Of a stretch of DNA of 64,000 bases, positions 37,169 to 56,841 are shown piece by piece. This DNA is from a virus, in the IMG/VR virus record IMGVR_UViG_3300024270_000061. One strand, 5' to 3'. Within the stretch, counting starts at the first letter, position 1, and every line of letters starts with the position of its first letter. The position numbers and the translations under genes were made by a program. The notes under the pieces were generated by a model. It saw only the letters and a program-made list of their open reading frames with translations, ran no database searches and was not told the origin of the DNA.

Positions 37169-38662
37169 TCAGAAATTGCCGAACCACAAGATGTTGCGAA
37201 TATCCGACAGAGAATACTCTTTCAGCATCTTGCCATCGCGGAAAACAGGAATCAGAAGATTCATGGGGTCGTCGTTGTGTTCAGCAAAGGTCAGGCCATC
37301 AACGCAGGAAAAATCCTTTCCATCGAAATGCACGGCGCAGCATCCTCGCTGAGATTTCTTGAAGTGCGCGTTATCCGTCTTGGGATTTTTGAAAATCATG
37401 ATGGGGGTTCCATTCTCGTCTTCTGCATAAGTTGCCTTAATGGCAATGCCAAAGGTATCACGAGTAAATGGATCGAAGTGACGGACACCGTTCTGGTCAT
37501 AATGTTCAAGGCACTGCATTGAGAAAGAGCCGACGCCAAGAGAAACATTATTACATGCAAAACCATTCTGCGTCAGGATTTCATAGATCTTTTCGCAGCG
37601 TTCCGGTGTAATGGAATCACCGTAAATGGCTTTGACGTGAGGATCAAGAACCTTATAGCCCTTGGAATTGACCGTACCACCAAACGTTTCCCAAAGATGG
37701 AAGACAGTCTGGGTAACAATCTCAACAGGATCACCGCTGTCTCCGCGAACCAGAAGGCATCCATCATGATTCATGATCTCATCCTTCAGCTGAGGAAGAA
37801 TGTTATCCACCAGATTCCAGTAATCATAAGAATCGGATACCATCGAGAAAGAATGATGAGGATAGATTTCCGTAAGCAGTCGGCGAACGAAAGTAATTTC
37901 GTCTCCATCGACAGCGTAATTTGAACACATTACACTGTGTTCGGTAGAAATCGCGCCGAATGCAACGGGTTCCTTGGTACAATCGCAGTTGTAATACTTC
38001 TCAAGCCATGGAAGAGTCGGAACGGTTGCAGTATTCAGGAACGAAAGGCAGAAACCAGCGCTGGACATTACCGCACTTTCGATACTCTCCTGACCTCTCA
38101 TGGAGAAATCACCAAGAGCTTTGGCACGAGGAAAAGAATCATCGACGGTCTTATCGTAATACTTATTGACGATGTTTCGATACATAACACCAACGTTTGC
38201 ACTTACCATAGCGTGCCAAAGCGTGGCAGAGATCGCTGATTCAATGGTATTGACCAGCCATGCAAACTTAGGATGAGTATTGGAAATCTCGAACATAGGA
38301 ACCTTGATGTTCACACGGCAACCTTCGGGCAGTGCCCGAATCTCAAGAGGCAAATAGCCCAGATCGTAAAGCTCCTCGATCTTTTTGAGATTGTAGGAAT
38401 TCTTTCCGAGGCCGTTGTCAACGATGCGAGCATATTCTGCCAACACCTCATCCTTCGGACGAGAGAAAAAGAAATCATCAAAGCATTCGATGAGATACGT
38501 TTTGATGAATGCCTGCAGGCCAAACATAACGAGCTTATTTTGACCTTCCAGGCGGGACATCCTGGGCGTAAAATACGATACCAGCTTCGTGACATTCTTA
38601 GGGTACATGTCGGAATGTACCACCTTGTACCAGTCACACAGCAAAAGCGGATTAAGTTTCAT
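37169..38662 (-). CDS. nadV: nicotinamide phosphoribosyltransferase (Nampt/NadV)
   Basis: N-terminal LCDWYKVVHSDMYP; 497 aa; family-typical length. Confidence 0.85.
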   Translation of the reverse strand: MKLNPLLLCDWYKVVHSDMYPKNVTKLVSYFTPRMSRLEGQNKLVMFGLQAFIKTYLIECFDDFFFSRPKDEVLAEYARIVDNGLGKNSYNLKKIEELYDLGYLPLEIRALPEGCRVNIKVPMFEISNTHPKFAWLVNTIESAISATLWHAMVSANVGVMYRNIVNKYYDKTVDDSFPRAKALGDFSMRGQESIESAVMSSAGFCLSFLNTATVPTLPWLEKYYNCDCTKEPVAFGAISTEHSVMCSNYAVDGDEITFVRRLLTEIYPHHSFSMVSDSYDYWNLVDNILPQLKDEIMNHDGCLLVRGDSGDPVEIVTQTVFHLWETFGGTVNSKGYKVLDPHVKAIYGDSITPERCEKIYEILTQNGFACNNVSLGVGSFSMQCLEHYDQNGVRHFDPFTRDTFGIAIKATYAEDENGTPIMIFKNPKTDNAHFKKSQRGCCAVHFDGKDFSCVDGLTFAEHNDDPMNLLIPVFRDGKMLKEYSLSDIRNILWFGNF

Positions 38663-38675
38663 ATTTCCCTTCCTT

Positions 38676-39485
38676 TCATTTGTTCAGGGGGAAAACGGTG
38701 ATCTTCTCGTGTTCTTTGTGGAAGATACTGTCCGTGGTATAGACATGATCCACAAAATCCGTCGTCAGCAAATCACCCTCAAAGATTGCATGTTCGCAGT
38801 GGGAACAGAAAACCGAAACGCTTTTCGCGCCAAGTTCTTTAAGGGCTTTTGCGGAATGAAAAAACGTGCCGCCGCGACAACAGATGTCATCCACGATCAG
38901 CACGTTCTTGCCCTTGATGTCGGCATTACAAACAACATCGAGGCCGGTAATCTTTCCAGTTTCCCAGCAGCGACGTTTAATGCCGAATCCGTATGGAGTT
39001 TTAATCATATCAGAATAGCGCTTCATAGCGCCTTCATCCGGGTAGAACAGAAGCAAATCGGGATCATCCATATTTCCCATCGCCTTGCGAATATAAGGCT
39101 CTGGGGACAGGATCTTGCAGTTGTTGATGAGCGCAGTTGCAACATTGGAATGAGGATCGAGGATATACACCGCCTTAAAGCCCAGCATGTTGATAAAGTC
39201 GGCAAAATACTTCAGCGTAAAGACTTCATAATCATGATGCGTTCTGTCCATTCTGGCATTCGGACAATACGGAAGAACGAGCGAGACGCCCTTAAAAGCG
39301 GAATGCTGCCAAAGATGACGGACAATGTAGTAAAGCGCTGTCATTTCATCTTCGCTCTCATAATGCCAGCGGATTACTGCCTCGCCTCCATTGTAGGCAA
39401 CATCGGGGCTGGAAACTCCAAACGCGAAAGTTCCGTCTGGAAACCGGCTGTCCAGCTGGATGCGGTAATTGTTCAGCCAAATCAT
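38676..39485 (-). CDS. prs: ribose-phosphate pyrophosphokinase (PRPP synthetase)
   Basis: PRPP-binding VLIVDDICCRGGTFFHSAKAL. Confidence 0.8.
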   Translation of the reverse strand: MIWLNNYRIQLDSRFPDGTFAFGVSSPDVAYNGGEAVIRWHYESEDEMTALYYIVRHLWQHSAFKGVSLVLPYCPNARMDRTHHDYEVFTLKYFADFINMLGFKAVYILDPHSNVATALINNCKILSPEPYIRKAMGNMDDPDLLLFYPDEGAMKRYSDMIKTPYGFGIKRRCWETGKITGLDVVCNADIKGKNVLIVDDICCRGGTFFHSAKALKELGAKSVSVFCSHCEHAIFEGDLLTTDFVDHVYTTDSIFHKEHEKITVFPLNK

Positions 39486-39500
39486 AGCTAACCCCTCCGT

Positions 39501-40130
39501 TTAGCCGTTGATGATCTTGATGTTACAGGGAGCCATAGCGTCGAGCGCCGTTTTGTGAGATTCGGGAGATACACAAGCGCAGCAAGCTGCGTCCACGATG
39601 ATCTCTGCCTCGGGAAGCACAGCGCGAAGCAGCATGGCGTTGCTCAGCACGCAAATGCCCGTACAGACTCCGCAAAGAACGATACGGTCATACTGTTCAT
39701 CGCTTGCTACATTAGAGAGAACAACGCTTCCGAAGGTGGGCTTATTGAGCATGGCGAAAAAATGACCAGAGCCAGCACAGTTCATCTTCGAATAGGATTT
39801 TTGTACGTCCTCGTTGATCTGCCAACCATCACTGTTCTGAATACAGTGAGGAACCGGGAGCATTTTGCCTTCAGCCGTGTCCATGTAGTTGTCTTGGTGC
39901 GTGTCTCTGGTCATGATGATGTCGCCCTGCCAGCCTTCGATTTTCTCGCAGACCTTGGGCACGATTGCCTTGGCCTCGTCTGTGCCAAGGACACCTGTTA
40001 CGAAGTCGTTTTGCATGTCAACGACTACAAGAAGTTCCTTCAAATTCCTTTCCTCCTTGATATGTTTTAGATGATGTTCGTCATCTATGACCTCGGCTTT
40101 TCTTGTCGAAACTGCCAGGGTCATGCCCAA
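39501..40130 (-). CDS. pncA: isochorismatase-family nicotinamidase (PncA-like)
   Basis: VVDMQNDF, DTH, and catalytic Cys in VLCGVCTGICV. Confidence 0.75.
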   Translation of the reverse strand: MGMTLAVSTRKAEVIDDEHHLKHIKEERNLKELLVVVDMQNDFVTGVLGTDEAKAIVPKVCEKIEGWQGDIIMTRDTHQDNYMDTAEGKMLPVPHCIQNSDGWQINEDVQKSYSKMNCAGSGHFFAMLNKPTFGSVVLSNVASDEQYDRIVLCGVCTGICVLSNAMLLRAVLPEAEIIVDAACCACVSPESHKTALDAMAPCNIKIING

Positions 40131-40144
40131 CGAATCGTGAGGCG

Positions 40145-40725
40145 AAGCGGCAAATAATAATTCGGTGCCCTGTGTGCGAGGAACTTAGGGGAAGTTCAGC
40201 CTTGGCTGAAGTTCATCCGAAGTTTCGAGCGCACAGCCTGCGGAGGATCTTTGATCCGAAGCAGGATTTGCCGCGAGCCGAACGAAAGGAGCATTGGGTT
40301 TCACTTTCGATTACACCAGAAAGTCACAATCTCCAGAAATTATGTATTCATGTTTACTGGTGATTGGTATCTTCATGACGAACTGTGATTGTGAATGCTT
40401 CGCAATCTGCATTGTATGGATGAGCTTGAGGATGACAGTGCGGGCCCTGGATACCGGTCGGCGAAGAGTCGTCAGCTCGTGCTATGACGTGTTGAGATGT
40501 CTAACGACCATGCCGGATCTGCTCGGGATGGGCGGATGCTGCAGACTCGACGTTATAAATAGCGCGATGGCCGCGTTCATCGCCTGATCGCTGAGCGCCT
40601 GAAGCCGGGCTGCCGGCTCGCAGGTGCCTCTGGGGCGGGGTACGTCATCCTAACCTTTTGATACTCCGGATTACACCTCGAAGCACTTAATCCTTAGAAA
40701 TAAGAACCAAGTTATACATTGCGAA
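40145..40725 (-). other. 580-nt GC-rich non-coding region; paralogue of the RT leader, ending in a conserved 60-nt hairpin element
   Basis: No ORF with an RBS. Shares blocks with 52194-52559 (GACGTGTyGAG, CTCGGGA, GAGCsCCTGAAGsC, GTCrTCCTrACCTTTTG-TAC-CCGGATTACACCTCGA-GCA). Confidence 0.5.
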
Positions 40726-40736
40726 GTTAAAGGGAA

Positions 40737-40827
40737 TGGCGGAGAGAGTGGGATTCGAACCCACGGACGGCGCGGAGCCGTCGGCGGTTTTCAAGACCGC
40801 TGCCTTAAGCCGCTCGGCCATCTCTCC
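40737..40827 (-). tRNA. tRNA-Ser (anticodon UGA), class II, CCA encoded
   Basis: RC: GGAGAGATGGCCGAGCGG...CTTGAAA...GGTTCGAATCC...CGCCA. Confidence 0.8.
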
Positions 40828-40835
40828 ATTACGGG

Positions 40836-41042
40836 TCAGTTTTTTGTAAAAGGTATAACCACTTCTTTAAGAGCTTGAATTCTATCGAAACGGTCATTGC
40901 GGCCATCAACCCAGCGTTCTTTACCACAGCGTTTACAGCGATATTTCCGCATTGAGAATCGAACATTGCCGTCAGTAGATTCAAACCAACTTACTTTAAC
41001 GAACTTATGTCTGCAGAATAATGAGATAAGCCATTTTTTCAT
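40836..41042 (-). CDS. small zinc-ribbon protein
   Basis: CKRCGK; basic. Confidence 0.35.
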   Translation of the reverse strand: MKKWLISLFCRHKFVKVSWFESTDGNVRFSMRKYRCKRCGKERWVDGRNDRFDRIQALKEVVIPFTKN

Positions 41043-41053
41043 ACTGCGTCTCC

Positions 41054-41353
41054 TTAGAACTTTCCAAGTATAACGGCCTTATCGGATATGTATTCGCCGT
41101 TAATGGTATTGAAGTATTGACCGATCGGGCGAACAAGATAGACGATTGGATTTCCTCCGTACTTAATACAGGCTTTCTTGGCAAATTTCTGAGCAGTAGC
41201 AAGAGACGTTGTGAAGAAAACCTTATCTTCGTACTTCTTCCTCCAATGTTCACGCTTGCAATTCGTGATGATGGGAGGCAAGAGAATTTTGTGAATTTGG
41301 AGAGAATCCGTAGTTCCATGATAGAAAACTTTAGTATTCGCCGGAAAATTCAT
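41054..41353 (-). CDS. mini ART-fold protein resembling the C-terminal NAD-binding lobe of Tpt1/KptA
   Basis: VFYHGTTDSLQIHKIL ... KVFFTTSLATAQKFAKKACIKYGGNPIVYLV resembles KptA LYHGTASRFLDEI...YVHLSAD...GSPVIL. No N-terminal RNA-binding lobe is present. Confidence 0.4.
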   Translation of the reverse strand: MNFPANTKVFYHGTTDSLQIHKILLPPIITNCKREHWRKKYEDKVFFTTSLATAQKFAKKACIKYGGNPIVYLVRPIGQYFNTINGEYISDKAVILGKF

Positions 41354-41609
41354 GTTCAATGACCTCGCATCCGTGGGCGGCGTCTTCGATGAGCCCAATC
41401 AAAAGAGCTTCTACGTCATCAAGAAGGTTTGCATAGGTACTCCCGTAAAGCCCAACCATATTGTCCGAATCTCTTTCTTCGTCCTCCGGACTGGGGATAC
41501 GGACATTATGCTGCTCAAGAATTTCTTCGAACATATCGATAATTCTTGCCGCTTCGTCATGCGTATAGATGGTCTTTCTATCCGAATCAGATTTGACTAT
41601 ACCCGTCAT
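41331..41609 (-). CDS. acidic hypothetical protein
   Basis: ORF. Confidence 0.35.
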   Translation of the reverse strand: MTGIVKSDSDRKTIYTHDEAARIIDMFEEILEQHNVRIPSPEDEERDSDNMVGLYGSTYANLLDDVEALLIGLIEDAAHGCEVIEHEFSGEY

Positions 41610-41838
41610 CGTACTCCTCCTTGATGATTTCTTGTCCTCTGCATCCTCTTTCGAGTCAAGCGGCTTGGAACGCTTCTTGCTGCATTACAAGCGGCAGACA
41701 GCCCAGTCCTACTATCTGCCGGATGTCCAGCTGTACTGGTTGGAGGGAACGCGATACTCCTGGCAAGCGCGAGCCTGTCTCCATCAAGCTCGTAAATGCG
41801 CTTTCATGCCCTGTCAATAACCAAGTGTATCGCAGCAG

Positions 41839-41914
41839 TGGTCTTCCTGGCGGGACTCGAACCCGCGACTCCTTGATTAAAAGTCAAGTGCTCTACCAAC
41901 TGAGCTACAGGAAG
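41839..41914 (-). tRNA. tRNA-Lys (UUU), CCA encoded
   Basis: RC: CTTCCTGTAGCTCAGTTGGTAGAGCACTTGACTTTTAATCAAG...GGTTCGAGTCCCGCCAGGAAGACCA. Confidence 0.85.
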
Positions 41915-41918
41915 GTAA

Positions 41919-41993
41919 TGGCGGCTCGTCAGGGATTCGAACCCCGAACCTATCGGTTAACAGCCGAGTGCTCTACCTTTGAGCTAACGAGCC
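41919..41993 (-). tRNA. tRNA-Asn (GUU), CCA encoded
   Basis: Anticodon loop CTGTTAA; T arm GGTTCGAATCC. Confidence 0.8.
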
Positions 41994-42031
41994 ATGATGC
42001 CACCGCCATTGTCGTAGAGGTGGCAAACAGA

Positions 42032-42223
42032 TTAGAATAACCGCTTTCCGCAAGTCGGGCAGCGGTAGATGGTGAAATTTCCGATCTTATAATCGGTTCC
42101 ATTGGTTTTGCAGTTGATCGGAAGATATTCGTTATCCCATTTCAGGCGATGGATTTCTCTTCCGTTCTTATCGACTTCGGCAACATATGGAACATAGCCT
42201 TTCGGATTGCATACACTGCACAT
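42032..42223 (-). CDS. zinc-ribbon small protein
   Basis: CSVCN ... CPTCGK. Confidence 0.35.
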   Translation of the reverse strand: MCSVCNPKGYVPYVAEVDKNGREIHRLKWDNEYLPINCKTNGTDYKIGNFTIYRCPTCGKRLF

Positions 42224-42536
42224 AAATCACGCACCTTCTTCCAGAAGATCGTCTTCAGTCATTTCATCCATGTCGCTTCTCATCGCCTGAAGTTTTCTCT
42301 GATCCGAAATCTTGTTGCTGGACATAGAATTCGGGCTACCTCCCCATGACTTGCGGGGATTGCACATACAGCAGGAGCAGTGAATCTTGTTCTTGGAATA
42401 TTGATGAAGATTGTCATACCAGTCTCCACCCATAATGTTCCTGACGATGGAACGCTTGCGTTTTGCATGTTTCCAATCCATCTTTCTGGAACGACCTCTG
42501 TTATTCGGCTTCATGCTATCACTCCTTGCTAAAGAA

Positions 42537-42629
42537 TGGCGGAAGGTGTGAGATTCGAACTCACGGTGCCCGAATTTCAGGCACGCCTGATTAGCAATCA
42601 GGTGCATTAAGCCACTCTGCCAACCTTCC
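42537..42629 (-). tRNA. tRNA-Ser (GCU), class II, CCA encoded
   Basis: Anticodon loop TTGCTAA; long variable arm. Confidence 0.8.
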
Positions 42630-42632
42630 AGA

Positions 42633-42707
42633 TGGAGCTCCCATTCGGATTTGAACCGAAAACCAATCGCTTACGATGCGATTGCTCTGCCGTTGAGCTA
42701 TAGGAGC
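42633..42707 (-). tRNA. tRNA-Thr (CGU), CCA encoded
   Basis: Anticodon loop ATCGTAA; T arm GGTTCAAATCC. Confidence 0.75.
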
Positions 42708-42975
42708 ACTTGTGTCTACAATTTCAATCGAACTTCCGATTTCTTCTCCAGCGCCTGCACCAACAGAAATCGCAATCCAGATACCCGACACGATGCCCGT
42801 CGATTTTGCACACCGAAGAACCATGCGCCACATGTTCTCGATTGCCACAACTTCCGCAGCAGCGCCCTTCTCTTACGTCGTCTGAAGCGTATACTTTCAG
42901 GCCGTTGTTGCTATTGCGAGTATCATAAGAAAGACATATGAGCAACGAGAACACCTCCTAAAATGATTGATGAAA

Positions 42976-43052
42976 TGGAGCCGGATATGGGACTCGAACC
43001 CATGACCCTGCGCTTACAAAACGCACGCTCTGGCCATCTGAGCTAATCCGGC
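42976..43052 (-). tRNA. tRNA-Thr (UGU), CCA encoded
   Basis: Anticodon loop TTTGTAA; T arm GGTTCGAGTCC. Confidence 0.75.
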
Positions 43053-43057
43053 ATGTG

Positions 43058-43133
43058 TGGTGGCCTCTGCTGGTAACGATCCAGCCTCCGTAGATTTTCA
43101 GTCTACTGCTTTCACCATGTAAGCTAAAAGGCC
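43058..43133 (-). tRNA. tRNA-Phe (GAA) candidate with atypical T-loop ATCGTTA
   Basis: RC: GGCCTTTTAGCTTACATGGTGAAAGCAGTAGACTGAAAATCTAC...GCTGGATCGTTACCAGCAGAGGCCACCA. Confidence 0.5.
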
Positions 43134-43140
43134 AAGTAAA

Positions 43141-43217
43141 TGGTGCCGAGGGTGGGACTTGAACCCACAAATCGCAGATTTTGAGGCTGCTTCCTATGCC
43201 ATTTCGGATACCCCGGC
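43141..43217 (-). tRNA. class-I tRNA with a CAA anticodon in loop CTCAAAA (identity ambiguous), CCA encoded
   Basis: RC: GCCGGGGTATCCGAAATGGCATAGGAAGCAGCCTCAAAATCTGCGATTTGTGGGTTCAAGTCCCACCCTCGGCACCA. Short variable arm. Confidence 0.55.
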
Positions 43218-43380
43218 TTGTGTGTTTCCCGCTTAGATTGAACATTGTATCCTTTGGGTCACGGCTACTCAGATCAAGCCGAACATTTGCAACTGTCCAG
43301 TTCCAATGCTTTTCAGCGGACATTTTCATTCTCTGTGAGGAATCCACAACGCTCACATCAGCAGGGAGCGACCCTGCATT

Positions 43381-43463
43381 TGGTATGGATGAAGGGATTC
43401 GAACCCTTACGCTTACGCACTGGGACTTAAAACCAGCGTGCCTGCCAATTACACCACATCCAC
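43381..43463 (-). tRNA. tRNA-Leu (UAA) candidate, class II, CCA encoded
   Basis: Anticodon region CTGGTTTTAAGTCCCAG; variable-arm hairpin TGCGTAAGCGTA; T arm GGTTCGAATCC. Confidence 0.6.
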
Positions 43464-43739
43464 TTAGTCTATTTTGTTGCGCCATTCATCATAGCTGGGA
43501 GGAGACATACCCTCATACTCATCGCTGTTATGGTCAATTGCCCATTGTACGAGGAACAAAAGATACCGCTCCCAACGCACGTCATAATCGTCCAGCAATG
43601 CACAATTGGTCAACCTCATGCCACTTTGTTCGAGCCATCCGAATTCATGCTCAAGCATTTCTATCGGAGGAAGCTCGGCTGTTGGCTCCTCTTGATAATT
43701 GATAATTGCAACGAAGGTTCTTTCATCCACCGCTATCAA
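43464..43739 (-). CDS. hypothetical protein (91 aa)
   Basis: ORF. Confidence 0.4.
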   Translation of the reverse strand: MIAVDERTFVAIINYQEEPTAELPPIEMLEHEFGWLEQSGMRLTNCALLDDYDVRWERYLLFLVQWAIDHNSDEYEGMSPPSYDEWRNKID

Positions 43740-43806
43740 CCTTTCCTATGGAAAGGCACCCCGCCACAATGAACGGGGTGCCAAGAGAATATGTGTTTAT
43801 GTACAA

Positions 43807-45300
43807 TTAGTGCTTGTCGGCAATAGCTCCACCAAGCATACCGGACAGCAGAGCCATCAGATCCAGACCGGTTGCATCCTTGAAGCCGTCTTGCACCTGC
43901 TTCATACCGGTCGTAACCGTGCCGGTCAGATTGGAGGTGCCGCCCTCGTAGATGGTCATGTTGTCGATGCTTTCCATGGGCTTCGCAATTGCCGCTGCAA
44001 TGTCCGGCATGGTCTTGACGTATTCCAACGCGACGTCCAGAACCATCTGCTGCTTCGCGGCATCGTCGTATTCCTTCATGGCTTCCGCCTTCTTCAGAAT
44101 ACCAACAGCTTCAGCCTCCGCTTTAGCCTGGATGGCTTCGGCTTCAGCGCGACCCTTTGCGGCAACGCCTGCCGCCTCGTTCTCCATAGCAATACGCTCT
44201 GCTTCGGAACGCGCCTTTTCGGCGGCGGCTCTTTGTTCAGCTTCGAACAGCTCAGCGTCTGCCTTCTTCTGTCGCTGGAAAAGCTCAGCCTCTGATGCCT
44301 TCTGAAGTTCGTACAGACGAGCGTCGGCTCTCTGCTGAGCAGCATACTTGTCTGCTTCAGCCTTCTTCTTGATCTCGGCATCCAGAGCGCGTTCACGGAT
44401 GGCGACTTCACGTTCCTTCAGCTCAATCTCCTTTTCCAGACGAGCCAAGTTAGCCTCGGCAGTCTTAGTTTCGATAGAAGCACGCTGTTCCTGCTCCTGA
44501 ATGGAATAAGCAGCATCGGCTTCTGCTCGCTTGGCATCCTCGATCTTTTTCAGTTCGGCTCTCTGGATTGCCAATTCGTTCTTGCGCTTAGCAATCTCTT
44601 GCTCAGACTTGACCTGAGCTTCGTTGGCAGCCATAGCGGCCTGCGCTCTGGCAATGGCAATTTCCTTTTCGGCCTGAGCCTTGGAAACAGCCGCATCCTT
44701 GGAAATCTGAACCGTGTTTTCCAGACCCAGATTATCAATGACGCCGTTGCGATCCTTGAAGTTCTGGATGTTGAAGGTGGTCAGCTCCAAGCCCATATCA
44801 CGCAGATTGGGCGTTACGTTCTCAATGATGCGTTCAGCGAAAGTCTTCTTGTCGCCCTGAATGAGTTCTTTCAGAGTGGTCTGAGAAATAATTTCGCGGA
44901 TGTTGCCTTCGAGAACGGGAGTGATGATTTCCTTGATTTGCTCGGGCTTATAGCCAAGGAACTTGGATGCTGCAATCTTCAGCAGTTCGGGTTCTTTGGA
45001 AATCGCCACGTTGGCCACCGCATCAACCATAATATTGATTGCGTCCTTGGTGGGAATCTCATCGCGGGAAGTAAAGTCGGACTGAATGTTTTCGAGCGAC
45101 ATGTAGTCAACTCGCTGGATAATGGGGATGACAAGAGCGCCCTGACCAATGATGGTTCTCGAACCACGCGGGCCGGTGATGACCATTGCAATGTTCGGGG
45201 GAGCCTTCTTGTACATAACCTTGCCGATGAAGACAACCAAGAGGACTGCGGCGATGAAACAACCAACAAAAACAGCGGCAGACATGATAGATTCGAGCAT
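43807..45300 (-). CDS. flotillin/SPFH (band 7) family membrane protein with a long EA-rich coiled coil
   Basis: N-terminal TM helix, an SPFH-like core (ITGPRGSRTIIGQGALVIPIIQ...) and a roughly 200-aa A/E/K-rich coiled coil. AAAGGAGA RBS. Confidence 0.75.
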   Translation of the reverse strand: MLESIMSAAVFVGCFIAAVLLVVFIGKVMYKKAPPNIAMVITGPRGSRTIIGQGALVIPIIQRVDYMSLENIQSDFTSRDEIPTKDAINIMVDAVANVAISKEPELLKIAASKFLGYKPEQIKEIITPVLEGNIREIISQTTLKELIQGDKKTFAERIIENVTPNLRDMGLELTTFNIQNFKDRNGVIDNLGLENTVQISKDAAVSKAQAEKEIAIARAQAAMAANEAQVKSEQEIAKRKNELAIQRAELKKIEDAKRAEADAAYSIQEQEQRASIETKTAEANLARLEKEIELKEREVAIRERALDAEIKKKAEADKYAAQQRADARLYELQKASEAELFQRQKKADAELFEAEQRAAAEKARSEAERIAMENEAAGVAAKGRAEAEAIQAKAEAEAVGILKKAEAMKEYDDAAKQQMVLDVALEYVKTMPDIAAAIAKPMESIDNMTIYEGGTSNLTGTVTTGMKQVQDGFKDATGLDLMALLSGMLGGAIADKH

Positions 45301-45409
45301 TCTGATTCTCCTTTGGTTCTATTTAAGTTCCCGCTGATACCAGCTCCGAGGATCACCCATCGCCCTGATAAGACTAATGCGAAAACCTTGAATCGGAGAT
45401 TTGATATAG

Positions 45410-45502
45410 CTTTAACCCTTGACCCTTAACGCTTGAGCTTTATTGCGTATAAACTTTAATGCCTAAGCCTTACACTTTGAGCTTTATGCTTTGAGCTTTG
45501 AG
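45410..45502. repeat. degenerate tandem heptamers (CTCAAAG on the minus strand; GCTTTGAG / CCTTAAC on plus) upstream of the flotillin gene
   Basis: Plus strand: ...cccttgacccttaacgcttgagctttatt...ctttgagctttatgctttgagctttgag. Confidence 0.7.
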
Positions 45503-45530
45503 ACAAAAAACAAGCGCTCCTGGCTTGTTT
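45501..45530 (-). terminator. Rho-independent terminator
   Basis: Stem AACAAGC/GCTTGTT with loop GCTCCTG, followed on the minus strand by TTTTTTGT. Confidence 0.7.
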
Positions 45531-45673
45531 CTCTATGCTTTGCATAGCATCTTCATATTATATCGCAACCCAAATGCGTTTCCCTGTTTACATTTATTTG
45601 GCATTCGTCCAAACAGGGGAAAGTGTCGAATGAGCCTATCGTTTAGGGTTTTCAGTAACAGCGGAATCTTATT

Positions 45674-46321
45674 TTACTTGGTATCGTAGCTGACAGTGAT
45701 GGTAGTCAGCGCATTGCTTACGCTCAGCGCAGCATCAATTTCAGCATCGAAAGCATCGATCTGCTCACTGAGCTGTTCGACCTTGGCTTTGATGTCAAGG
45801 GGATCGACCATATCCAGAGAGTTCATTTCGATGTATGCTTCACGGGTCTTAATGGCTTCGTCACTCTTTGCCTTTTCACTGTTGGCAAACAGGCCGGAAA
45901 CATAGGCGTCTGCCTTAGCCTGAAGCTCATCTCCGTTGGTGCGCTTGAAGTCCAGCGTTGCGGCAGCGAACTGCACTGTCATCTGCTTGACAAGCAGACG
46001 CAGGTTTTCCATGCCGGTCTTCTTCATCTCAATGGCTTCTGCAACCGTATAGGACTTGCCGCCAATGGTCACTTTGGTCTGGGCATTGGAGATGGACAGC
46101 GCATTACGGATCGCCGCTCTGCGATTGATACGAGCAATGATGCTTTCATAATCGCTCTTCATGCCATCCTTGTAGTCACCGACAGGCTTGCCGGCAATCT
46201 TATCATTAGAATGCTTGTTCGTGGTAATAAAAGTCGTGCCACGAATCTGATTCTGGATTCGATCATCCAGAATCTTGAGGGTGCTGAGAGCCTGATGGAC
46301 AGTCATGGTTTCCGTAGTCAT
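45674..46321 (-). CDS. hypothetical protein (215 aa)
   Basis: ORF. Confidence 0.5.
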   Translation of the reverse strand: MTTETMTVHQALSTLKILDDRIQNQIRGTTFITTNKHSNDKIAGKPVGDYKDGMKSDYESIIARINRRAAIRNALSISNAQTKVTIGGKSYTVAEAIEMKKTGMENLRLLVKQMTVQFAAATLDFKRTNGDELQAKADAYVSGLFANSEKAKSDEAIKTREAYIEMNSLDMVDPLDIKAKVEQLSEQIDAFDAEIDAALSVSNALTTITVSYDTK

Positions 46322-46349
46322 GTAAATACCCCTTCCTTTTCTTCTGAGT

Positions 46350-46424
46350 TGGCTGTGGCGGTTGGGTTCGAACCAACGAATGCGGGAGTCAAAGTCCCGT
46401 GCCTTACCGCTTGGCTACGCCACA
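46350..46424 (-). tRNA. tRNA-Gln (UUG), CCA encoded
   Basis: U1-A72; anticodon loop CTTTGAC; T arm GGTTCGAACC. Confidence 0.8.
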
Positions 46425-46427
46425 ATG

Positions 46428-46502
46428 TGGTGGAGGATAAGGGGCTCGAACCCTCAACCTTCCGCTTGCAAAGCGGATGCTCTACCTTTGAGCTAATCCC
46501 CC
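46428..46502 (-). tRNA. tRNA-Ala (UGC), CCA encoded
   Basis: G3-U70 identity pair; anticodon loop TTTGCAA. Confidence 0.85.
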
Positions 46503-46783
46503 AGGTTGCACAGCGACCAATCTTCATCTCCAATGTCATGCTGAATTAAGGTGGACATGGAACAAGCGTCCTTGCGTGAGCTCCCACAGGCCAAGTGCCA
46601 TATCTCTCAATGTTCTATTAGCCCTTAATCCCTCTGCGTAATTCGTCTTATGAGTGCATTCCATCAGTTAGAAAAACCGATCCTGCGCATGGCGGCTTCT
46701 ATTCAGTTTTGAAAGGACGTATAAAGCCGCAACGGTAGTCCGTTTTCGCAGCTACGGATGTCTAATTTGTGCTGCGTCAGCGT

Positions 46784-46857
46784 TGCGCCCGAAGGGAATC
46801 GAACCCTTGACCACGCAGTTTCCCCTGCGTGACTCTACCAACTGAGTTACGAGGCGC
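46784..46857 (-). tRNA. tRNA-like gene with an aberrant 6-nt anticodon loop (GGGAAA) and no encoded CCA; possible pseudo-tRNA
   Basis: RC: GCGCCTCGTAACTCAGTTGGTAGAGTCACGCAGGGGAAACTGCGTGGTCAAGGGTTCGATTCCCTTCGGGCGCA. Good D and T arms; 7-bp anticodon stem with a 6-nt loop. Confidence 0.45.
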
Positions 46858-47044
46858 ATAGAAACCTCTGATACTTTTTCATCGCTTGTTTTCACAACCC
46901 TGAATCAATTAACAGGAAACGGTTTAATGTTATCAGAGGCGAGACGACCTAAGCCTTTTTGCCGTTAGAAAGCATTATCTTGTCGCCTGGAGGGGCGGAT
47001 TTTCTCATGCTCCGCCATACAAGGAACCCTGAATCTAACTGGGT

Positions 47045-47121
47045 TGGCAGGGGAAGAAGGATTTGAACCCTCATCTACATCTGATTTGGAATCAGGAGTT
47101 TTTCCGTTAAACTATTCCCCT
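47045..47121 (-). tRNA. tRNA-Trp (CCA), CCA encoded
   Basis: Anticodon loop TTCCAAA; T arm GGTTCAAATCC. Confidence 0.8.
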
Positions 47122-47179
47122 TCGTAAGCGACTGCCGAAACAACCGCTACTTTTGATAGACTTACGCCTTTATGATGGC

Positions 47180-47256
47180 TGGCGCACCAAGAGGGACTCG
47201 AACCCCCGACACATGGCTTAGAAGGCCAATGCTCTATCCATCTGAGCTACTGGTGC
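47180..47256 (-). tRNA. tRNA-Arg (UCU), CCA encoded
   Basis: Anticodon loop CTTCTAA; T arm GGTTCGAGTCC. Confidence 0.8.
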
Positions 47257-47261
47257 AGAAG

Positions 47262-47335
47262 TGGAGCACCGTGCGGGAATCGAACCCGCGACACATACTT
47301 GGAAGGAACGTGTTTTGCCACTAAACTAACGGTGC
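47262..47335 (-). tRNA. tRNA-Gly (UCC), CCA encoded
   Basis: Anticodon loop CTTCCAA; T arm GGTTCGATTCC. Confidence 0.75.
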
Positions 47336-48123
47336 GCAGTTATGATGTCAACCACAGGAATTCTAAGTTTCCTGCACCATTTTTTAACTGAGTTGCCCGT
47401 TACGTTATATTTGCGACCAACTGCGCACAGGCTCTTCAGCTGTAAAATATCTTTAATTAGATCGTCTCTGGTAGGAATACATCCATTTTTCATTTGTGCA
47501 ATATGAGAACACTTTATGGAACAATACTTCTGACCTTTGGAGCGACTTTGAAATACTGAAGAACACACTCCGCATACTCTTTTACCGCACTGGATATTGC
47601 TATCGATTGGCCTCAGTTTGTCTTTACTGACCAACTTTCTATATACGGATTGAGTTCTTATCGGGTATTCAATGTCATCCATCACCCAGCTATCGCCTCG
47701 ATTGATCGAACGTACCATACTACCTGAAATGCCAACAATATCGCCAATCTCATCCGTAGAATACGAAGTAGTTTTCAGCATATCGACTATTTTGCTGTAT
47801 AGCTCATTCGTCATAATATTACTGTGGCCATCTTGTCCTCCCGGAGTCGAATTGTAACCATTCGGAACCATGCTGTTGTAATACGAAATCCAGTATCTTT
47901 CCTTTTCATTGAGTTCGGACGTTAAACAGCTTTCTACCACCTCAAACGAGAAATTTTCTATCCCGTATTTTGCAAAGGCCTTATATAGTGGAAGATGCAG
48001 CAATCTTTCTTCATGCGCCGACTTATGATTATTCCATCTTTTTGATATACACCTGGATTGTCCTATGTATATCTTACCGTTAATCCGATTTTGAATCTTA
48101 TAGATCCCAATTTCTTTCGCCAT
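47326..48123 (-). mobile_element. GIY-YIG homing endonuclease gene inside the tRNA cluster
   Basis: GIYKIQNRINGKIYIGQS ... NGYN motifs. Its 3' end overlaps the 5' end of tRNA-Gly by about 10 nt. Confidence 0.8.
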
Positions 48124-48154
48124 TTCGTTATCCTACTCATAATGAATTGCTATT

Positions 48155-48231
48155 TGGTCTGGCTGACAGGATTTGAACCTGCGACCTCGTGATCCCAAAT
48201 CACGCCATCTACCAAACTGATATACAGCCAG
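48155..48231 (-). tRNA. tRNA-Pro (UGG), CCA encoded
   Basis: Anticodon loop TTTGGGA; T arm GGTTCAAATCC. Confidence 0.8.
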
Positions 48232-48237
48232 ATACTG

Positions 48238-48322
48238 TGGTGGGCGGAGGTGGATTTGAACCACCGCATCCAGAGGAGCCTGATTTACAGTCAGGTGCCT
48301 TTGACCGCTCGGCCATCCGCCC
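48238..48322 (-). tRNA. tRNA-Tyr (GUA), class II, CCA encoded
   Basis: Anticodon loop CTGTAAA; long variable arm. Confidence 0.8.
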
Positions 48323-49021: not shown

Positions 49022-49408
49022 CTATTCAACCTCAGTCCAACCGTTTCGCTGAATGATGCGTCGCATGTTTCCCGCACCGACTGGGTTCATACTGTGAATC
49101 CTGATGGGATAGTTACGACCAGTTTCTTCGAGCCAGTCAAGGAGCTTGATATAATCTCCCCCATTTACGGCAAAAGTGCCCGCATCATGATCTATGTCAA
49201 TAACTTCGATTTTAAGAAGGTTCTTCAATAATGATAGAGCGTTTGCTCTGTGGAGAGGCGCTTCCGCGAACATTTCTTTGTGTGCATAAATACCACATTT
49301 CGCATATTGAGTTTCTAACTCAATTATTGCTGCCTTTGCAACATTCACGCTTCTGATCCACAAATACCCATCTGGAGCAGGACGAGTATCGTCAATCCAT
49401 AGCTTCAT
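49022..49408 (-). CDS. CheY-like receiver (REC)-like domain protein
   Basis: KLWIDDTRP ... IEVIDIDHD ... GGDYIKLLDW pattern. Confidence 0.4.
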   Translation of the reverse strand: MKLWIDDTRPAPDGYLWIRSVNVAKAAIIELETQYAKCGIYAHKEMFAEAPLHRANALSLLKNLLKIEVIDIDHDAGTFAVNGGDYIKLLDWLEETGRNYPIRIHSMNPVGAGNMRRIIQRNGWTEVE

Positions 49409-49646
49409 CGGCCATCGCAACCCCTCTCGAACACCTTTGAATTAACCCCATCGGAAATCAAAACCCGAGTTCCTTGGGAGAAAAAGCATTTCTGAGAATT
49501 CCATACGGCATCAAGGCTCGTCTCCTTGTCTCCATGCACTTCGTAAGTCGGACACTTGTTTATCAGCGAAACTGTAAACTTCTTTTCTTCGTTTACCATA
49601 CGCATTCTCCTATATAGAATTTCCCTGAAGAGGAGGCGCGGCAACA

Positions 49647-51050: not shown

Positions 51051-52193
51051 TCACGGGTCGCCACGAAGGTCTGCTCGAATCATTCGGACAAGATTCACCT
51101 CGTACTTCTTGTTCAGATGATCGATGACGTAGGTGATGTAGTCCTTCTCGACCATCTTGTAATACGACTTGAGTCCATTTAGTGCGCAGACATCGTGCAG
51201 ATCCCATTTGATTCCGCGTTTTCTGTCCTGAATGTAATTGGTACACATTGCTTTGAAACGTTTCTTGGCCTGATACCCTACGGTAATCTGGTTATTCCTG
51301 TTCAGCATCAATCCAAGATTCCAGTTACGACCGGAGCTGGAACCGTACCTCGTCTTAGCAGACTTGATCTTGAACGGAGCATTGAATCGTGCAAGGGTCG
51401 CATCGATTTCCTTCACCATTCCCAAAGGGTCAAATTCGTATCTGCTGGAAATCTGAATATCGTCTGCGAAACGGGTATAAATAAAGCCCTTCTTGCGAAG
51501 AGCGTTGAAAAGGGCATGGTCGATGGGGATCATCATCAGGTTTGTCAGCATTGGAGAAATCGGAGTGCCTTGCGGAAGACCTCCATTCAGGAAACATAAG
51601 TCCATCGCTTTGCTGAGCACCTGCTTTCCCTTTTCGTCCTTCATGATTTCGCTGAAAGGAAAGATGATGTCCATCATTCCGAGGATAAACTCGATGGTCG
51701 TACTTCCGAAGAAATCGGAGAAGTCTGTCTTTTCGAACCACTTGCTTTCATTCGCCTGATGTTTCTTCATTGCATCAAGTGTATTGCGATGCTTCACATA
51801 GGCAAAAGCGGACGTGTGATACAACGCAAACATCTTATCTTCGAAGATGGACTTGAGTTCCCTCAGTGCTTCCATCAAAGGTTCATGCGGTGCATTGATC
51901 CAGCGAAGGCCGCCAGACTTCTTGGGAATTGGAAAGGTTTCGTAAAGAGAAGCACGCTTTGCGCCATACAGAGCTTCGTGCTTCTTTACAAACTCCTCTA
52001 AGACACGAATCATCGAAGGAATATCCGACCGGCGAACGACATCCTCATTGACTGTTTCATAGAACCTGGTGACTGTGGCTGAAACATCCTTTGACTCGGG
52101 TGAAATGTTATCGACGTTGACTTCACCCTTCAGGATTTCCTCCAGTGTTATCTGATGGGTTCTGGGAGTTTGCATTATAGTAATGTAAGGCAA
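51051..52193 (-). CDS. compact reverse transcriptase (380 aa), not of the DGR type
   Basis: RT motifs IPKKSGGLRWINAP, SAFAYVKHRNTLDA, GLPQGTPISP, RFADD. TTG start with AGGAGG 9 nt upstream. Confidence 0.85.
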   Translation of the reverse strand: MPYITIMQTPRTHQITLEEILKGEVNVDNISPESKDVSATVTRFYETVNEDVVRRSDIPSMIRVLEEFVKKHEALYGAKRASLYETFPIPKKSGGLRWINAPHEPLMEALRELKSIFEDKMFALYHTSAFAYVKHRNTLDAMKKHQANESKWFEKTDFSDFFGSTTIEFILGMMDIIFPFSEIMKDEKGKQVLSKAMDLCFLNGGLPQGTPISPMLTNLMMIPIDHALFNALRKKGFIYTRFADDIQISSRYEFDPLGMVKEIDATLARFNAPFKIKSAKTRYGSSSGRNWNLGLMLNRNNQITVGYQAKKRFKAMCTNYIQDRKRGIKWDLHDVCALNGLKSYYKMVEKDYITYVIDHLNKKYEVNLVRMIRADLRGDP

Positions 52194-52559
52194 TGCAAAT
52201 ACCTCCTTTACTCTTCATGATCTGCAATCTAACATATGTGGTGTGCCTGCTGCGCCAGCTGCTGAGGAGGTGTCTTCCAGGGACTGGGGAGCTTGGGAAC
52301 TCTGATGCAGGGCGTGCAGGTCTGGGGAGGTCAGGGTTTTGACGTGTCGAGGCGTTCGTTTGCCTGTGAGATCTTGGTTCTGAGATTGTGCGATGAGCCT
52401 CGGGACGTTGTGTGGCGTGAGTGTTCGAGCTGGAGTCGAGCCCTGAAGGCGCCATGGCCACTGGGAGGCAGGCCTCCGTCGTCCTGACCTTTTGTTACGC
52501 CGGATTACACCTCGACGCATTCAATCAAGAGATTGAATTATACATTGCAGATTTAGGTT
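52194..52559 (-). ncRNA. 366-nt GC-rich structured leader / candidate ncRNA upstream of the RT
   Basis: C-rich on the coding strand; no RBS-bearing ORF. Begins (minus sense) with TATAAT and the hairpin TCAATC-tctt-GATTGA inside the conserved element 52478-52538. Paralogous to 40145-40725. Confidence 0.5.
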
Positions 52560-53995: not shown

Positions 53996-54008
53996 GACTA
54001 AACCTCCC

Positions 54009-54281
54009 TTAGTTTTCTTCGTTGATGATGATACCACCTTGGATGATAACGCGCTTGCCGTTGATGTCGAAATATACTTCATCGGTGCTATCGCTAACAT
54101 CAAACTTGCCCGACCATGATTTAATCATGTCTCCGTCGTAGCTATAGACAGAAACGGTACGATTGAGGCCGCCGCCCCAGTTGCTTTCATACGACTTGAC
54201 AGTGCGCTTCCATCCTTCCGTGCAACCGGTAAGGCAAAAGAGCATCACGATCAGGACGGCAACGAGAATGATCTTTTTCAT
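54009..54281 (-). CDS. small lipoprotein
   Basis: Signal peptide MKKIILVAVLIVMLFCLTGC with lipobox LTGC. Confidence 0.6.
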   Translation of the reverse strand: MKKIILVAVLIVMLFCLTGCTEGWKRTVKSYESNWGGGLNRTVSVYSYDGDMIKSWSGKFDVSDSTDEVYFDINGKRVIIQGGIIINEEN

Positions 54282-54300
54282 GTGACTCATTCCCCTTTTC

Positions 54301-56743: not shown

Positions 56744-56841
56744 ATTGCACCCACCTTAATGTAGCGACTCCCTCCCGACACATCGCCGAGAGGGAGTCTA
56801 AATCTATTTGGGGATATGAAGGAAACCCGGAGAGGGAAGGA

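Follow-up and report, generated by a model that had tools for sequence, protein, structure and literature searches.

Bacteria are known to use retrons against phages, with one RNA accompanying each reverse transcriptase (RT), and retrons also serve as tools for making DNA in cells. The terminal stem of the retron RNA 'ends with the branching guanosine and its opposing guanosine' (PMC12673091), while in the RT the H of the NAXXH motif and the G of the VTG motif are the 'most conserved' residues (PMC7736814). A second system of relevance is UG27 (Mestre 2022), for which an ncRNA next to the RT of gut phages was reported in 2022. The portions of that report covered here describe one ncRNA with 'three long stem-loops', place UG27 among the class 2 UG/Abi RTs and not the retrons, and regard it as non-defensive and possibly anti-defence (PMC9226505). 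UG27 is apparently under study in a 2026 preprint as well (10.64898/2026.09.22.753630), in the accessible text of which 'cDNA' occurs 24 times and 'branched' and 'priming' never; both sources temper the novelty of the present findings.

We analyzed a window of 64,000 nt of viral DNA (IMG/VR record IMGVR_UViG_3300024270_000061). Our best reading, to which as a whole we assign a probability of roughly 0.68, is that this window carries three paralogous non-coding RNAs of 308–333 nt on the minus strand, with a retron-like (msr-msd type) architecture, and that these are retron-like templates, several of which are served by one RT. The minus strand is the strand of the elements and of all nearby genes. 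The RNA features are as follows.

52220–52552, minus strand: ncRNA copy B, 333 nt, with the 5' and 3' arms of a terminal inverted repeat as its ends; directly upstream of the RT gene
52544–52552, minus strand: 5' arm of the terminal inverted repeat of copy B (AUCUGCAAU), complementary to 52220–52228
52543, minus strand: invariant G of copy B, directly after the 5' arm; candidate branching (priming) G, in a position matching that of the retron branching G (PMC12673091)
52520–52537, minus strand: SL1 hairpin of copy B (UUCAAUC-UCUU-GAUUGAA), seen in the fold; the sequence varies among copies and orthologues with the pairing kept
52497–52518, minus strand: SL2 hairpin of copy B (GCGUCG-A-GGU-GUA-AUC-CGGCGU), proposed handle for the RT
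52479–52496, minus strand: linker of copy B (AACAAAAGG) and first bases of its body (UCAGGACGA), conserved not only in copy A but also among orthologues of both copies
52236–52478, minus strand: variable body of copy B, presumed template; C-rich (C 0.41, G 0.19)
52220–52235, minus strand: conserved 3' end of copy B, AUGUUAG followed by the 3' arm AUUGCAGAU; 94–100% identical in orthologues
40398–40726, minus strand: ncRNA copy A, 329 nt, beginning 10 nt past tRNA-Ser, with no RT adjoining
Parts of copy A, minus strand: 5' arm 40718–40726; invariant G 40717; SL1 40686–40711; SL2 40663–40684; 3' motif and arm 40398–40413
40076–40383, minus strand: ncRNA copy C, 308 nt, following A in tandem; 32 nt separate its end from the pncA start codon
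Parts of copy C, minus strand: 5' arm 40375–40383; invariant G 40374; SL1 40327–40366; SL2 40303–40324; 3' hairpin 40087–40124; 3' arm 40076–40084

The retrons whose RTs are closest to that of the phage belong to the St85/II-A and the Ec83/Ec78 I-A groups, and the locus resembles them in four respects: (i) the ncRNA lies upstream of the RT in the same orientation, (ii) terminal inverted repeats close the RNA and enclose internal structures, (iii) the stem ends in a conserved G opposite a G, and (iv) the 5' part carries hairpins, behind which comes a variable region; the phage RNAs have two hairpins where one to three are expected of an msr. It departs from retrons in being borne by phages (apparently lytic, tRNA-rich gut phages) and not by bacterial defence islands, and in having 2–5 RNAs per RT, placed in tandem or kilobases away, whereas a retron has one that is contiguous with its RT. 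The phage body of 190–250 nt is multi-branched, with several medium stems, in contrast to the single or double long hairpin (10–50 bp stem) of a classical msd, and the phage RT has degenerate NAXXH and VTG motifs and an N-terminal extension of ~75 aa. Finally, no known retron effector was recognized by PADLOC or Pfam among the neighboring ORFs scanned (four of them in the case of PADLOC); the conserved neighbors of the phage RT are E1-like and JAB-like.

The family may be UG27, to which we liken it by description and not by UG27 sequence. Both come from gut viromes with Firmicutes and Bacteroidetes bins as hosts, and, by description, both appear to have an RT flanked by conserved domain-less genes and a predicted structured ncRNA in the spacer between the RT and a neighbor. 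The present RT, unlike UG27 as described, scores with retron RTs (3e-46 for retron St85 against 1e-10 for the class 2 member Drt2), and terminal repeats, a priming G and several copies per genome are absent from the parts of the UG27 description covered here. In DRT2 and DRT9 (UG2, UG28), as presumably here, an ncRNA 5' of the RT is the template and RNA structure sets the copied part; in contrast to those systems, our RT is only distantly related to theirs, and the RNAs contain neither a stop-free concatemer frame nor a homopolymer template. Type VI retrons likewise have the 3' end of the RNA beside the RBS of the next gene, but a small-protein toxin with an HTH antitoxin was not recognized nearby, and several of the elements precede another element and not a gene.

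Architecture of the RNA Copies

The minimum-energy folds of copies B, A and C are each closed by the terminal arms and each contain SL1 and SL2. The layout common to all three is a 9-nt terminal duplex, a variable SL1, a conserved SL2 with its linker, a C-rich body of ~200 nt and an AUGyAG motif before the 3' arm. Copy B fitted covariance model R1 with 57.5 bits (E 7e-10), its fold has a z of -2.9, and the last G of its AUGUUAG (52229) lies opposite the invariant G. Copy A scored 41 bits (E 1.6e-6), and, relative to B, its SL2 carries a compensatory change from G-C to U-A. Orthologues of both were found in two related loci (L213 and L215), those of B in the equivalent position. Copies A and C sit between tRNA-Ser and pncA, 10–12 kb from the RT. 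In copy C only SL2 was matched by the model (15.5 bits, E 0.23); its fold reaches a z of -4.85, and its arms change compensatorily in orthologues (GUUCGUCAU/AUGACGAAC versus CCCAUCAU/AUGAUGGG). All three copies have the same SL2 apex, GGUGUAAUC. Another clade of the family carries CGCCAAAGGC at its apex. One further match to the model, at 60448–60525 (15.6 bits), is located inside an ORF and was taken as chance.

An earlier note on this DNA had drawn attention to two GC-rich non-coding regions, near 40 and 52 kb, that share a hairpin-bearing module, and its observation was partly borne out. The module is real (40643–40692 versus 52477–52526, 86% over 50 nt; blastn E 3.6e-11), both regions are non-coding and mildly GC-rich (0.55–0.575 versus ~0.48 in the surroundings), the TCAATC...GATTGA hairpin that it saw in the 52-kb copy is SL1, and one copy (B) does lead directly into the RT. 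Its interpretation was right in part: the regions do belong to structured RNAs that form a family, as opposed to mere spacers. The ~250 nt of homology that it claimed between A and B was not supported: beyond the ~100-nt 5' module and the last ~17 nt, the local score was 19 versus 17.7 ± 2.6 for shuffled sequences, and 139 of 500 shuffles reached it. Because the bodies align no better than shuffles, the block CTCrACACGTCA (GACGTGTyGAG in the note), which was all that this alignment recovered from the bodies, is within chance. The note would have abandoned its idea had the alignment ended at the module and covariation been missing; the alignment does end there, but covariation is strong. The GGATTA...TAATCC hairpin assigned to the 40-kb copy is not the conserved fold; it combines SL1 sequence (the 3' arm) with SL2 sequence (the loop).

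The first region had been given as 40145–40725, an interval that covers the whole of A and most of the then unrecognized C (40076–40383). The genuine third copy is C, inside this interval, and not the partial copy placed near 57520. A search with CTGAAGCCGGGCTG (≤3 mismatches) gave 7 matches versus 4.7 expected, none of them at 57520, where the covariance model found nothing either. The supposed recurrence of CCCTGAAG amounts to 4 occurrences versus 1.9 expected, a count reached by 13 of 100 shuffles. Rfam, which the note had proposed to search, returned only tRNAs at the gathering score and, for both regions, nothing of relevance with an E of ≤10. The spacer at 57463–57777 holds a terminator-like hairpin and a match resembling a twister ribozyme.

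The Reverse Transcriptase and Adjacent Genes

Three genes border the RNAs.

51051–52193, minus strand: reverse transcriptase gene, 380 aa; TTG start at 52191–52193, RBS AAGGAGG at 52202–52208
40737–40827, minus strand: tRNA-Ser(UGA) (ARAGORN; Rfam 58.7 bits), immediately upstream of copy A
39501–40043, minus strand: isochorismatase/pncA-like gene, downstream of copy C (Pfam Isochorismatase 1.6e-20)

The RT is the single reverse transcriptase of the phage and is encoded right after copy B; its N-terminus, MPYITI, is common to the homologues. The protein matched Pfam RVT_1 (1.8e-16), the PADLOC model of retron RT_II-A (1e-42) and NCBIfam retron_St85_RT (3e-46; 157.9 bits, below the 235-bit cut-off), and its best PDB match was the RT of Retron Ec83 (3.5e-36). 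The top matches in these three libraries (PADLOC, NCBIfam and PDB) are all retron RTs, with all family scores lying below the curated cut-offs, and sequence comparison places the protein in the retron or retron-like RT lineage. Scores against Drt2, Drt3a, DRT1 and AbiA ranged from 1e-10 to 2e-3, those against Drt2 being only 1e-10 (over 65 residues) and 4e-8, and the group II intron maturase model gave 6e-18. The RT keeps YADD and matches retron RTs over the full length, thumb included. Judged by the alignment with Ec83 and by the family consensus, NAXXH of retron region X and VTG of region Y are not intact, and A[LMV]KKH (aligned with NAKIH of Ec83) and NLG are found instead; the H of the former and the G of the latter are kept and are invariant in an alignment of eight RT sequences.

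Processing of the 3' end of tRNA-Ser would set the 5' end of copy A. On the other side of the tandem pair, the true start of the pncA-like gene is probably the TTG at 40041–40043, which follows an RBS (AAGGAGG, 40052–40058); the Isochorismatase match begins at residue 33 of the long ORF, and the orthologues are called at 180 aa. The wider context comprises NAMPT, a Prs-like gene, pncA and 17 tRNAs in the window, and RtcB, a Pnkp-like ligase and a Macro domain in the relatives. DUF6273-type ORFs flank the RT. Its conserved neighbors are a ThiF/E1-like protein (F2), a JAMM/JAB-like protein and two proteins without a known domain. F1 and F3, present in 22–23 of 23 loci, gave no significant Pfam or PHROG matches, and either the ThiF-like F2 or F6 borders the spacer. 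A functional tie of these conserved neighbors to the RT is inseparable from shared synteny.

Covariation and Sequence Constraint

Upstream of the RT homologues the layout recurs, and the arms there remain complementary in spite of their different sequences. Across a non-redundant set of 154 elements, the best match to the 5' arm on the 3' side peaked at 9–11 bp, versus mostly 4–6 bp for shuffled arms. When the ends of 87 relatives were joined, the terminal helix was 90% paired with 256 double-change cells, which 0 of 500 shuffles reached, and 11 of 11 pairs had changes on both sides. These pair counts are partly circular, the 3' arm having been picked for its complementarity; independent evidence comes from the conserved G, the AUGyAG motif and the control with shuffled arms. 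Sliding the 3' partner lowered the pairing to 30–40%, and the covariation of this helix is long-range, spanning ~300 nt. A G directly follows the 5' arm in all 87 elements and another precedes the 3' arm in 85 of them, the latter being a feature that was not used for locating the arm.

For SL2, 98.3% of the cells were paired, with 192 double-change cells over 104 distinct sequences, and none of 500 shuffles equaled it; SL1 is variable, and its compensatory changes were judged by eye. The SL2 apex is concerted within genomes, with an identity of 0.81 within a genome versus 0.51 between genomes, whereas the arms show 0.62 and 0.63, respectively.

Orthologue identity is 0.65–0.77 for the 5' handle and 0.94–1.0 for the 3' end, versus 0.31–0.42 for the bodies (0.31–0.39 for copy B) and 0.34–0.41 at fourfold-degenerate sites of the RT gene. 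The body of ~200 nt drifts at the neutral rate, and its stems are not conserved between orthologues. ORFs inside the elements (e.g., 52215–52520, 101 aa) were rejected as coding, the orthologues having frame-breaking indels and only neutral-level identity.

Proposed Mechanism and Role

We propose that the RNAs are transcribed and processed, and that the RT would recognize the SL2 apex that all three copies have in common. Priming would take place on the 2'-OH of the invariant G, and copying of the body would start just 5' of the opposing G, which puts the predicted start points on the plus strand at 52230, 40408 and 40086, running rightward. The G/G geometry is present by position in the sequence; the 2'-5' chemistry, and with it a branched linkage, is predicted. 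The product would be a G/T-rich single-stranded DNA. Copy B would be used in cis and copies A and C in trans, so that one enzyme would make several different DNAs.

What these DNAs would do is the weakest step of the proposal. We favor a counter-defence or decoy role over abortive infection because genes of counter-defence type surround the locus and the scanned neighbors included no recognizable retron effector. It is tempting, if rather unlikely, to go further and picture a widespread family of gut phages in which one retron-type RT and 2–5 RNAs, with constant handles and templates of ~200 nt that are free in sequence yet C-rich, supply several abundant G/T-rich ssDNAs as decoys or sponges against host immunity; this would be a retron turned to counter-defence and the first natural multi-template retron.

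A phage-borne, retron-like RT with several RNAs that have one recognition hairpin would, if the RT copies them all, be a natural case of one RT with several templates, and such a multi-template RT would bear directly on multiplexed retron editing. It would also mean that phages use msDNA-type molecules for their own ends, possibly for counter-defence. For a large family of gut-phage RTs, the locus offers a concrete model of arms, priming G and handle.

Alternative Explanations

The alternative that survives best retains the partnership of RT and RNA and gives it non-retron chemistry. As in DRT2, DRT9 or 'UG27', the RNAs would be UG/Abi-like templates or scaffolds, with priming from a 3' end or a protein, or with repetitive copying, and the terminal duplex would mark template boundaries only. 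We consider this unlikely, even though the UG27 descriptors fit (gut phages, two domain-less partner genes and a third one beyond an intergenic spacer with an ncRNA; PMC9226505), the retron signature motifs of the RT are degenerate and the body is unlike classical msd RNA; term counts in the accessible text of the 2026 UG27 preprint, with cDNA and no branching, point the same way. Against it, the RT resembles retron RTs (3e-46 and 3.5e-36) far more than Drt2, Drt3a, DRT1 and AbiA, and an invariant G that faces another G where the terminal stem ends is specifically the retron priming geometry. A DRT2-like open frame through the template seemed at first sight to be in excess (34 of 89 bodies versus 19.4 after mononucleotide shuffling), but the excess was gone against dinucleotide shuffles (30.1 ± 4.0). 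Copies A and C have no stop-free frame in the RNA sense.

Alternatively, the elements could be cis-acting leaders or RNA-processing signals that govern translation or stability of the next gene (the RT after B, pncA after C) and are never reverse transcribed. The placement of the 3' arm, which in most loci ends 11–35 nt before the next start codon and at or overlapping the RBS, would suit such a function, as would the abutment of copy A on a tRNA; type VI retrons reportedly gate translation by means of their RNA and DNA (10.1101/2025.10.22.683967). We nevertheless hold this to be improbable: copy A precedes another element and not a gene, tandem pairs being common in the relatives, and the downstream genes vary by locus (RT, metallophosphatase, pncA and others), whereas the handle is common to all. 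Moreover, the SL2 apex tracks the genome and hence the RT, not the downstream gene, and the G/G junction would be left without a role.

That the shared module is a promoter, a terminator, a REP-like repeat or a small mobile element dispersed among spacers has very little probability in our estimate. The earlier note had pointed to TATAAT and TATAAC on the minus strand as a -10-like box and had suggested testing the 60-nt module as a promoter or leader for HTH/sigma-like proteins, and a weak promoter-like site (9/12 matches) is present in the 3' end of A (40438–40411). The hexamers, however, are situated inside the RNA just past the 5' arm, have no -35 partner and are not kept as TATAAT in the relatives, where the same position in 87 of them reads G-[CTAG]-A-[TA]-[AT]; the module is the 5' handle of the RNA, made up of the end of the 5' arm, the invariant G, SL1, SL2 and the linker. 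Nor do the elements show signs of mobility, which the note had also entertained: the 287 copies in relatives (209 and 78 in the two collections below) are all on the RT strand, in fixed syntenic positions and nowhere but beside or close to the RT. Covariation over ~300 nt and the failure of a 16-mer of the module to lead to any fitting element in unrelated contigs speak against this reading too.

An origin as template repeats of a diversity-generating retroelement (DGR) or as group II intron remnants can be dismissed for practical purposes: an RT does adjoin a non-coding region here and is flanked by DUF6273-type ORFs, but no body sequence has a second copy in the window as a variable repeat, the RT scored 3e-46 with retron models versus 6e-18 with the group II intron maturase (DGR-type RT models being outside the comparison), and Rfam, even at E 10, matched neither an intron nor anything else.

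Occurrence in Gut Phages

Relatives of the RT were found in at least 264 viral (IMG/VR) contigs and in 68 contigs of gut genome bins, the latter mostly from gut Clostridia and some from Bacteroidota. The element model gave 209 matches in viral contigs (87 loci) and 78 in genome bins (68 independent loci), with 2–5 elements per locus in the relatives. GenBank phages showed no DNA similarity to the RT region, and one distant record ('human fecal') was found at the protein level. The RT family itself amounts to thousands of protein clusters.

The 16-mer of the module occurs in 2 viral and 120 metagenome stretches; 82 unrelated loci among them were run against the model, which fitted none, and the 16-mer matches in those loci were put down to chance. 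A suspected array of ~20 elements in one locus (L066) turned out to consist of tandem paralogous genes of ~80 aa.

Boundaries and anatomy of the RNA elements

All genes near the shared module lie on the minus strand of the window, 17 tRNAs as well as ORFs, and the module is therefore to be read on that strand. Its occurrence in two regions was confirmed: positions 40643–40692 and 52477–52526 are 86% identical over 50 nt, and blastn gave E 3.6e-11. Since the N-terminus MPYITI is conserved, the start of the reverse transcriptase (RT) gene was fixed at a TTG preceded by an AAGGAGG ribosome-binding site; the 52-kb region is thus the spacer immediately ahead of the RT. The 40-kb region is flanked by tRNA-Ser and by an isochorismatase/pncA-like gene that probably starts at TTG 40041–40043, and given this start its non-coding span is 693 nt. 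The features are as follows.

51051–52193, minus strand: reverse transcriptase ORF (Pfam RVT_1)
52191–52193, minus strand: RT start codon TTG
52220–52552, minus strand: non-coding RNA copy B, directly upstream of the RT
40737–40827, minus strand: tRNA-Ser
40398–40726, minus strand: non-coding RNA copy A, same plan as B
40076–40383, minus strand: non-coding RNA copy C, from an SL2-only model match and its fold

Copy B begins 7 nt past a stop codon and displays, from 5' to 3', a 9-nt 5' arm AUCUGCAAU, a G, a short junction, the hairpins SL1 and SL2 (the latter GCGUCG-A-GGU-GUA-AUC-CGGCGU), a conserved linker, a C-rich body of ~240 nt, AUGUUAG, and a 3' arm AUUGCAGAU that is the complement of the first. 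The start of copy A is 10 nt past the tRNA; the arms (CUUCGCAAU/AUUGCGAAG) and SL1 of this copy are unlike those of B, and the two SL2 hairpins are distinguished by one compensatory change, G-C to U-A. A covariance model built from relatives scored B at 57.5 bits and A at 41 bits. The model also matched 40301–40324 by SL2 only, with the apex GGUGUAAUC found in the other copies, which led to the recognition of a third element, C. This copy contains arms GUUCGUCAU/AUGACGAAC, a G, a long SL1 and SL2, its 3' end lies 32 nt ahead of the pncA start, and its predicted fold is closed by the arms (z −4.85).

The core of the earlier note is real, and several of its details are wrong. Its first interval, 40145–40725, covers copy A plus most of copy C. 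The diverged homology over 250 nt proposed for the two regions fails, because A and B resemble each other in their bodies no more closely than shuffled sequence does; the GACGTGTyGAG block (CTCrACACGTCA) was the sole body block returned by local alignment and is at chance level.

Covariation and drift across the family

Copies A, B and C belong to a large family of structured RNAs that is linked to a retron-type RT found in gut phages. RT relatives were found on 264 IMG/VR contigs and on 68 gut genome-bin contigs, mostly Clostridia, and ~4,800 protein clusters match the RT at E ≤ 1e-20. Nearly all regions upstream of these relatives have the same layout, with arms that vary by locus and retain their complementarity. 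When the partner of the 5' arm was sought within 150–520 nt in 154 non-redundant elements, the best partner was mostly 9–11 bp, versus mostly 4–6 bp with shuffled arms. In a gap-free alignment of 87 joined 5' and 3' ends the terminal helix was 90% paired, 11 of 11 pairs had changed on both sides and no shuffle reached the observed value, a count that is partly circular because complementarity was used to locate the 3' arm; sliding the partner lowered pairing to 30–40%. Two features played no part in that search: a G follows the 5' arm in 87/87 elements, and a G precedes the 3' arm in 85/87, usually inside AUGUAG. SL2 was 98.3% paired, with 192 double-change cells among 104 distinct sequences. 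Rfam gave no match for the family in scans of the window and of both regions.

Between the window and two related loci (L213 and L215), identity was 0.65–0.77 in the 5' handle, 0.94–1.0 at the 3' end and 0.31–0.42 in the body. The latter equals the neutral rate at fourfold-degenerate sites of the RT gene (0.34–0.41), so the body sequence is free, although its length and its C>G skew are kept. In the RNA sense the body is C-rich and G-poor (e.g., 52236–52478), with negative skew in 93% of 89 non-redundant elements.

Several RNA copies per RT locus

With the covariance model, 209 copies were identified across 87 viral loci, and another 78 across 68 independent genome-bin loci. Copies in relatives are all on the RT strand, at 2–5 per locus; typically one precedes the RT, one or two follow it directly and some are 4–10 kb off; one locus (L003) has a tandem pair upstream of its RT. 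With F1–F6 denoting neighbour gene families, the conserved order is F4-F3-F1-F2-[F6]-RNA-RT-RNA-RNA-...-pncA-Prs-NAMPT. In the closest relatives (RT 77–80% identical), orthologues of A and C occupy the pre-pncA spacer only 3–4 kb after the RT; in the window, extra sequence adds ~6–7 kb to this distance. It includes a tRNA array (40737–48322, minus strand, 17 genes) broken by a GIY-YIG endonuclease ORF (47326–48123) and an SPFH/flotillin-like ORF (43807–45300). For one tRNA, 46782–46858, ARAGORN reports an irregular anticodon loop, and the Rfam score is only 34.9 bits.

Identity of the SL2 apex was 0.81 within a genome versus 0.51 between genomes, and that of the arms 0.62 versus 0.63. Since the apex tracks the genome while the arms do not, we read this pattern as one RT probably recognizing one handle on all its RNAs. 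What is unusual about the system is this multi-copy layout with its common handle. Our incomplete coverage of the literature yielded no description of a retron-like system that is borne by phages and has more than one cognate RNA.

The RT itself varies among relatives: some contigs of a 77% identical homologue cluster (P0016) carry it in two pieces, a 166-aa and a 214-aa ORF that add up to 380 aa, and the gene is therefore split or interrupted there. Another locus (L066, 11179–16968) has ~17 tandem paralogous genes of ~80 aa after the RT, sharing the pattern ...VGD.V.V..P...W...WL...E..ED...L.

Relationship to retrons and to UG27

Retron RNAs hybridize at their ends, have one to three hairpins in the 5' part and use the 2'-OH of a conserved G as primer (PMC7736814); the terminal stem of Retron-Eco7 [quoted passage not shown] (PMC12673091). 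The predicted geometry of our elements is the same, with paired ends, hairpins in the 5' part and a G facing a G at the stem end. The best matches of the RT were retron RT_II-A in PADLOC (1e-42) and retron St85 in NCBIfam (3e-46), though its scores in retron families all fall under the curated cut-offs. Its best solved-structure matches were all retron RTs (Ec83 at 3.5e-36; Ec78, Ec67 and Ec86). For Drt2, Drt3a, DRT1 and AbiA the values were only 1e-10 to 2e-3. Unlike retron RTs, the protein has A[LMV]KKH for NAXXH and NLG for VTG, retaining just the H and G, and the body is multi-branched and 190–250 nt long instead of a long hairpin.

Mestre et al. (2022) describe UG27 as an RT that occurs in over a thousand genomes of human-gut phages and is associated with two gene clusters in which no known domain is present, with a predicted ncRNA of "three long stem-loops" between the RT and a third cluster; its authors class it with UG/Abi RTs and consider it non-defensive (PMC9226505). 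Compared by description, these descriptors fit the RT family of the window: F1 and F3 have no significant domain matches, and F2 or F6 borders the spacer. The UG/Abi grouping differs from our finding that the RT matches retron RTs best. In a September 2026 preprint, UG27 occurs 74 times, cDNA 24, "retron" twice and "additional ncRNA" once; "branched", "priming" and "inverted repeat" have 0 occurrences each.

Proposed mechanism and role

The analysis shows the RNA architecture, its conservation pattern and the affinity of the RT. Beyond these, we propose by analogy that A, B and C would be transcribed together with the upstream genes and that each RNA would fold through its terminal duplex. The RT would then bind SL2, prime on the invariant G and start copying the body at the base that lies 5' of the opposing G, yielding three different G/T-rich single-stranded DNAs. 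For function, the weakest part of this reading, we lean towards counter-defence or a decoy, because the region is rich in counter-defence-type genes (NAD salvage genes and tRNAs in the window; RtcB, Pnkp-like ligase and Macro domain in relatives) and no known retron effector was recognized among the neighbouring ORFs scanned. A cis-regulatory role is less likely, since some elements are followed by another element instead of a gene.

Neighbouring features

The NAD-salvage set (37169–40043, minus strand: NAMPT, Prs-like, isochorismatase/pncA) adjoins the A/C pair. In close relatives (L213, 14944–21071) the set is joined by a Pnkp-like kinase-phosphatase-ligase and a Macro-domain gene, and in more distant ones by RtcB; as a group, these genes resemble an island for counter-defence or repair.

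The gene block upstream of the RT (53324–57462, minus strand) is kept in 22–23 of 23 related loci. It encodes a ThiF/E1-like protein (53324–54103, minus strand; Pfam 4e-27), a protein in which the JAMM motif E...HSH...S..D is invariant and whose profile matches RPN11 at E 0.02 (54301–55308, minus strand), and minus-strand ORFs of 487 aa (55280–56743) and 206 aa (56842–57462) without known domains. The block resembles a phage-borne module for ubiquitin-like conjugation and deconjugation.

Type-P1 twister matches were observed at 63472–63540 and 57665–57724, both on the minus (gene) strand in long spacers, with 56.4 and 45.8 bits (E 5.6e-10 and 5.9e-7, whole window); neither reaches the Rfam gathering score of 67.2. 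The second is upstream of the conserved F4...RT block, near the third partial copy claimed previously. Just upstream of this second match lies a terminator-like hairpin (57730–57775, minus strand; CAGAGGG...CCCUCUG, then a U run), which suggests that the spacer holds the start of a transcription unit. A small ORF at 49022–49420 (minus strand) encodes a cyclic-phosphate processing receiver domain (cREC_REC; Pfam 1.9e-15), of interest beside ribozymes that produce cyclic-phosphate ends. Inside a ~860-nt non-coding region (63137–64000) that closes the window, two perfect 77-nt tandem copies form a 70% G+C stretch (63825–63978), and this array may continue past the window end.
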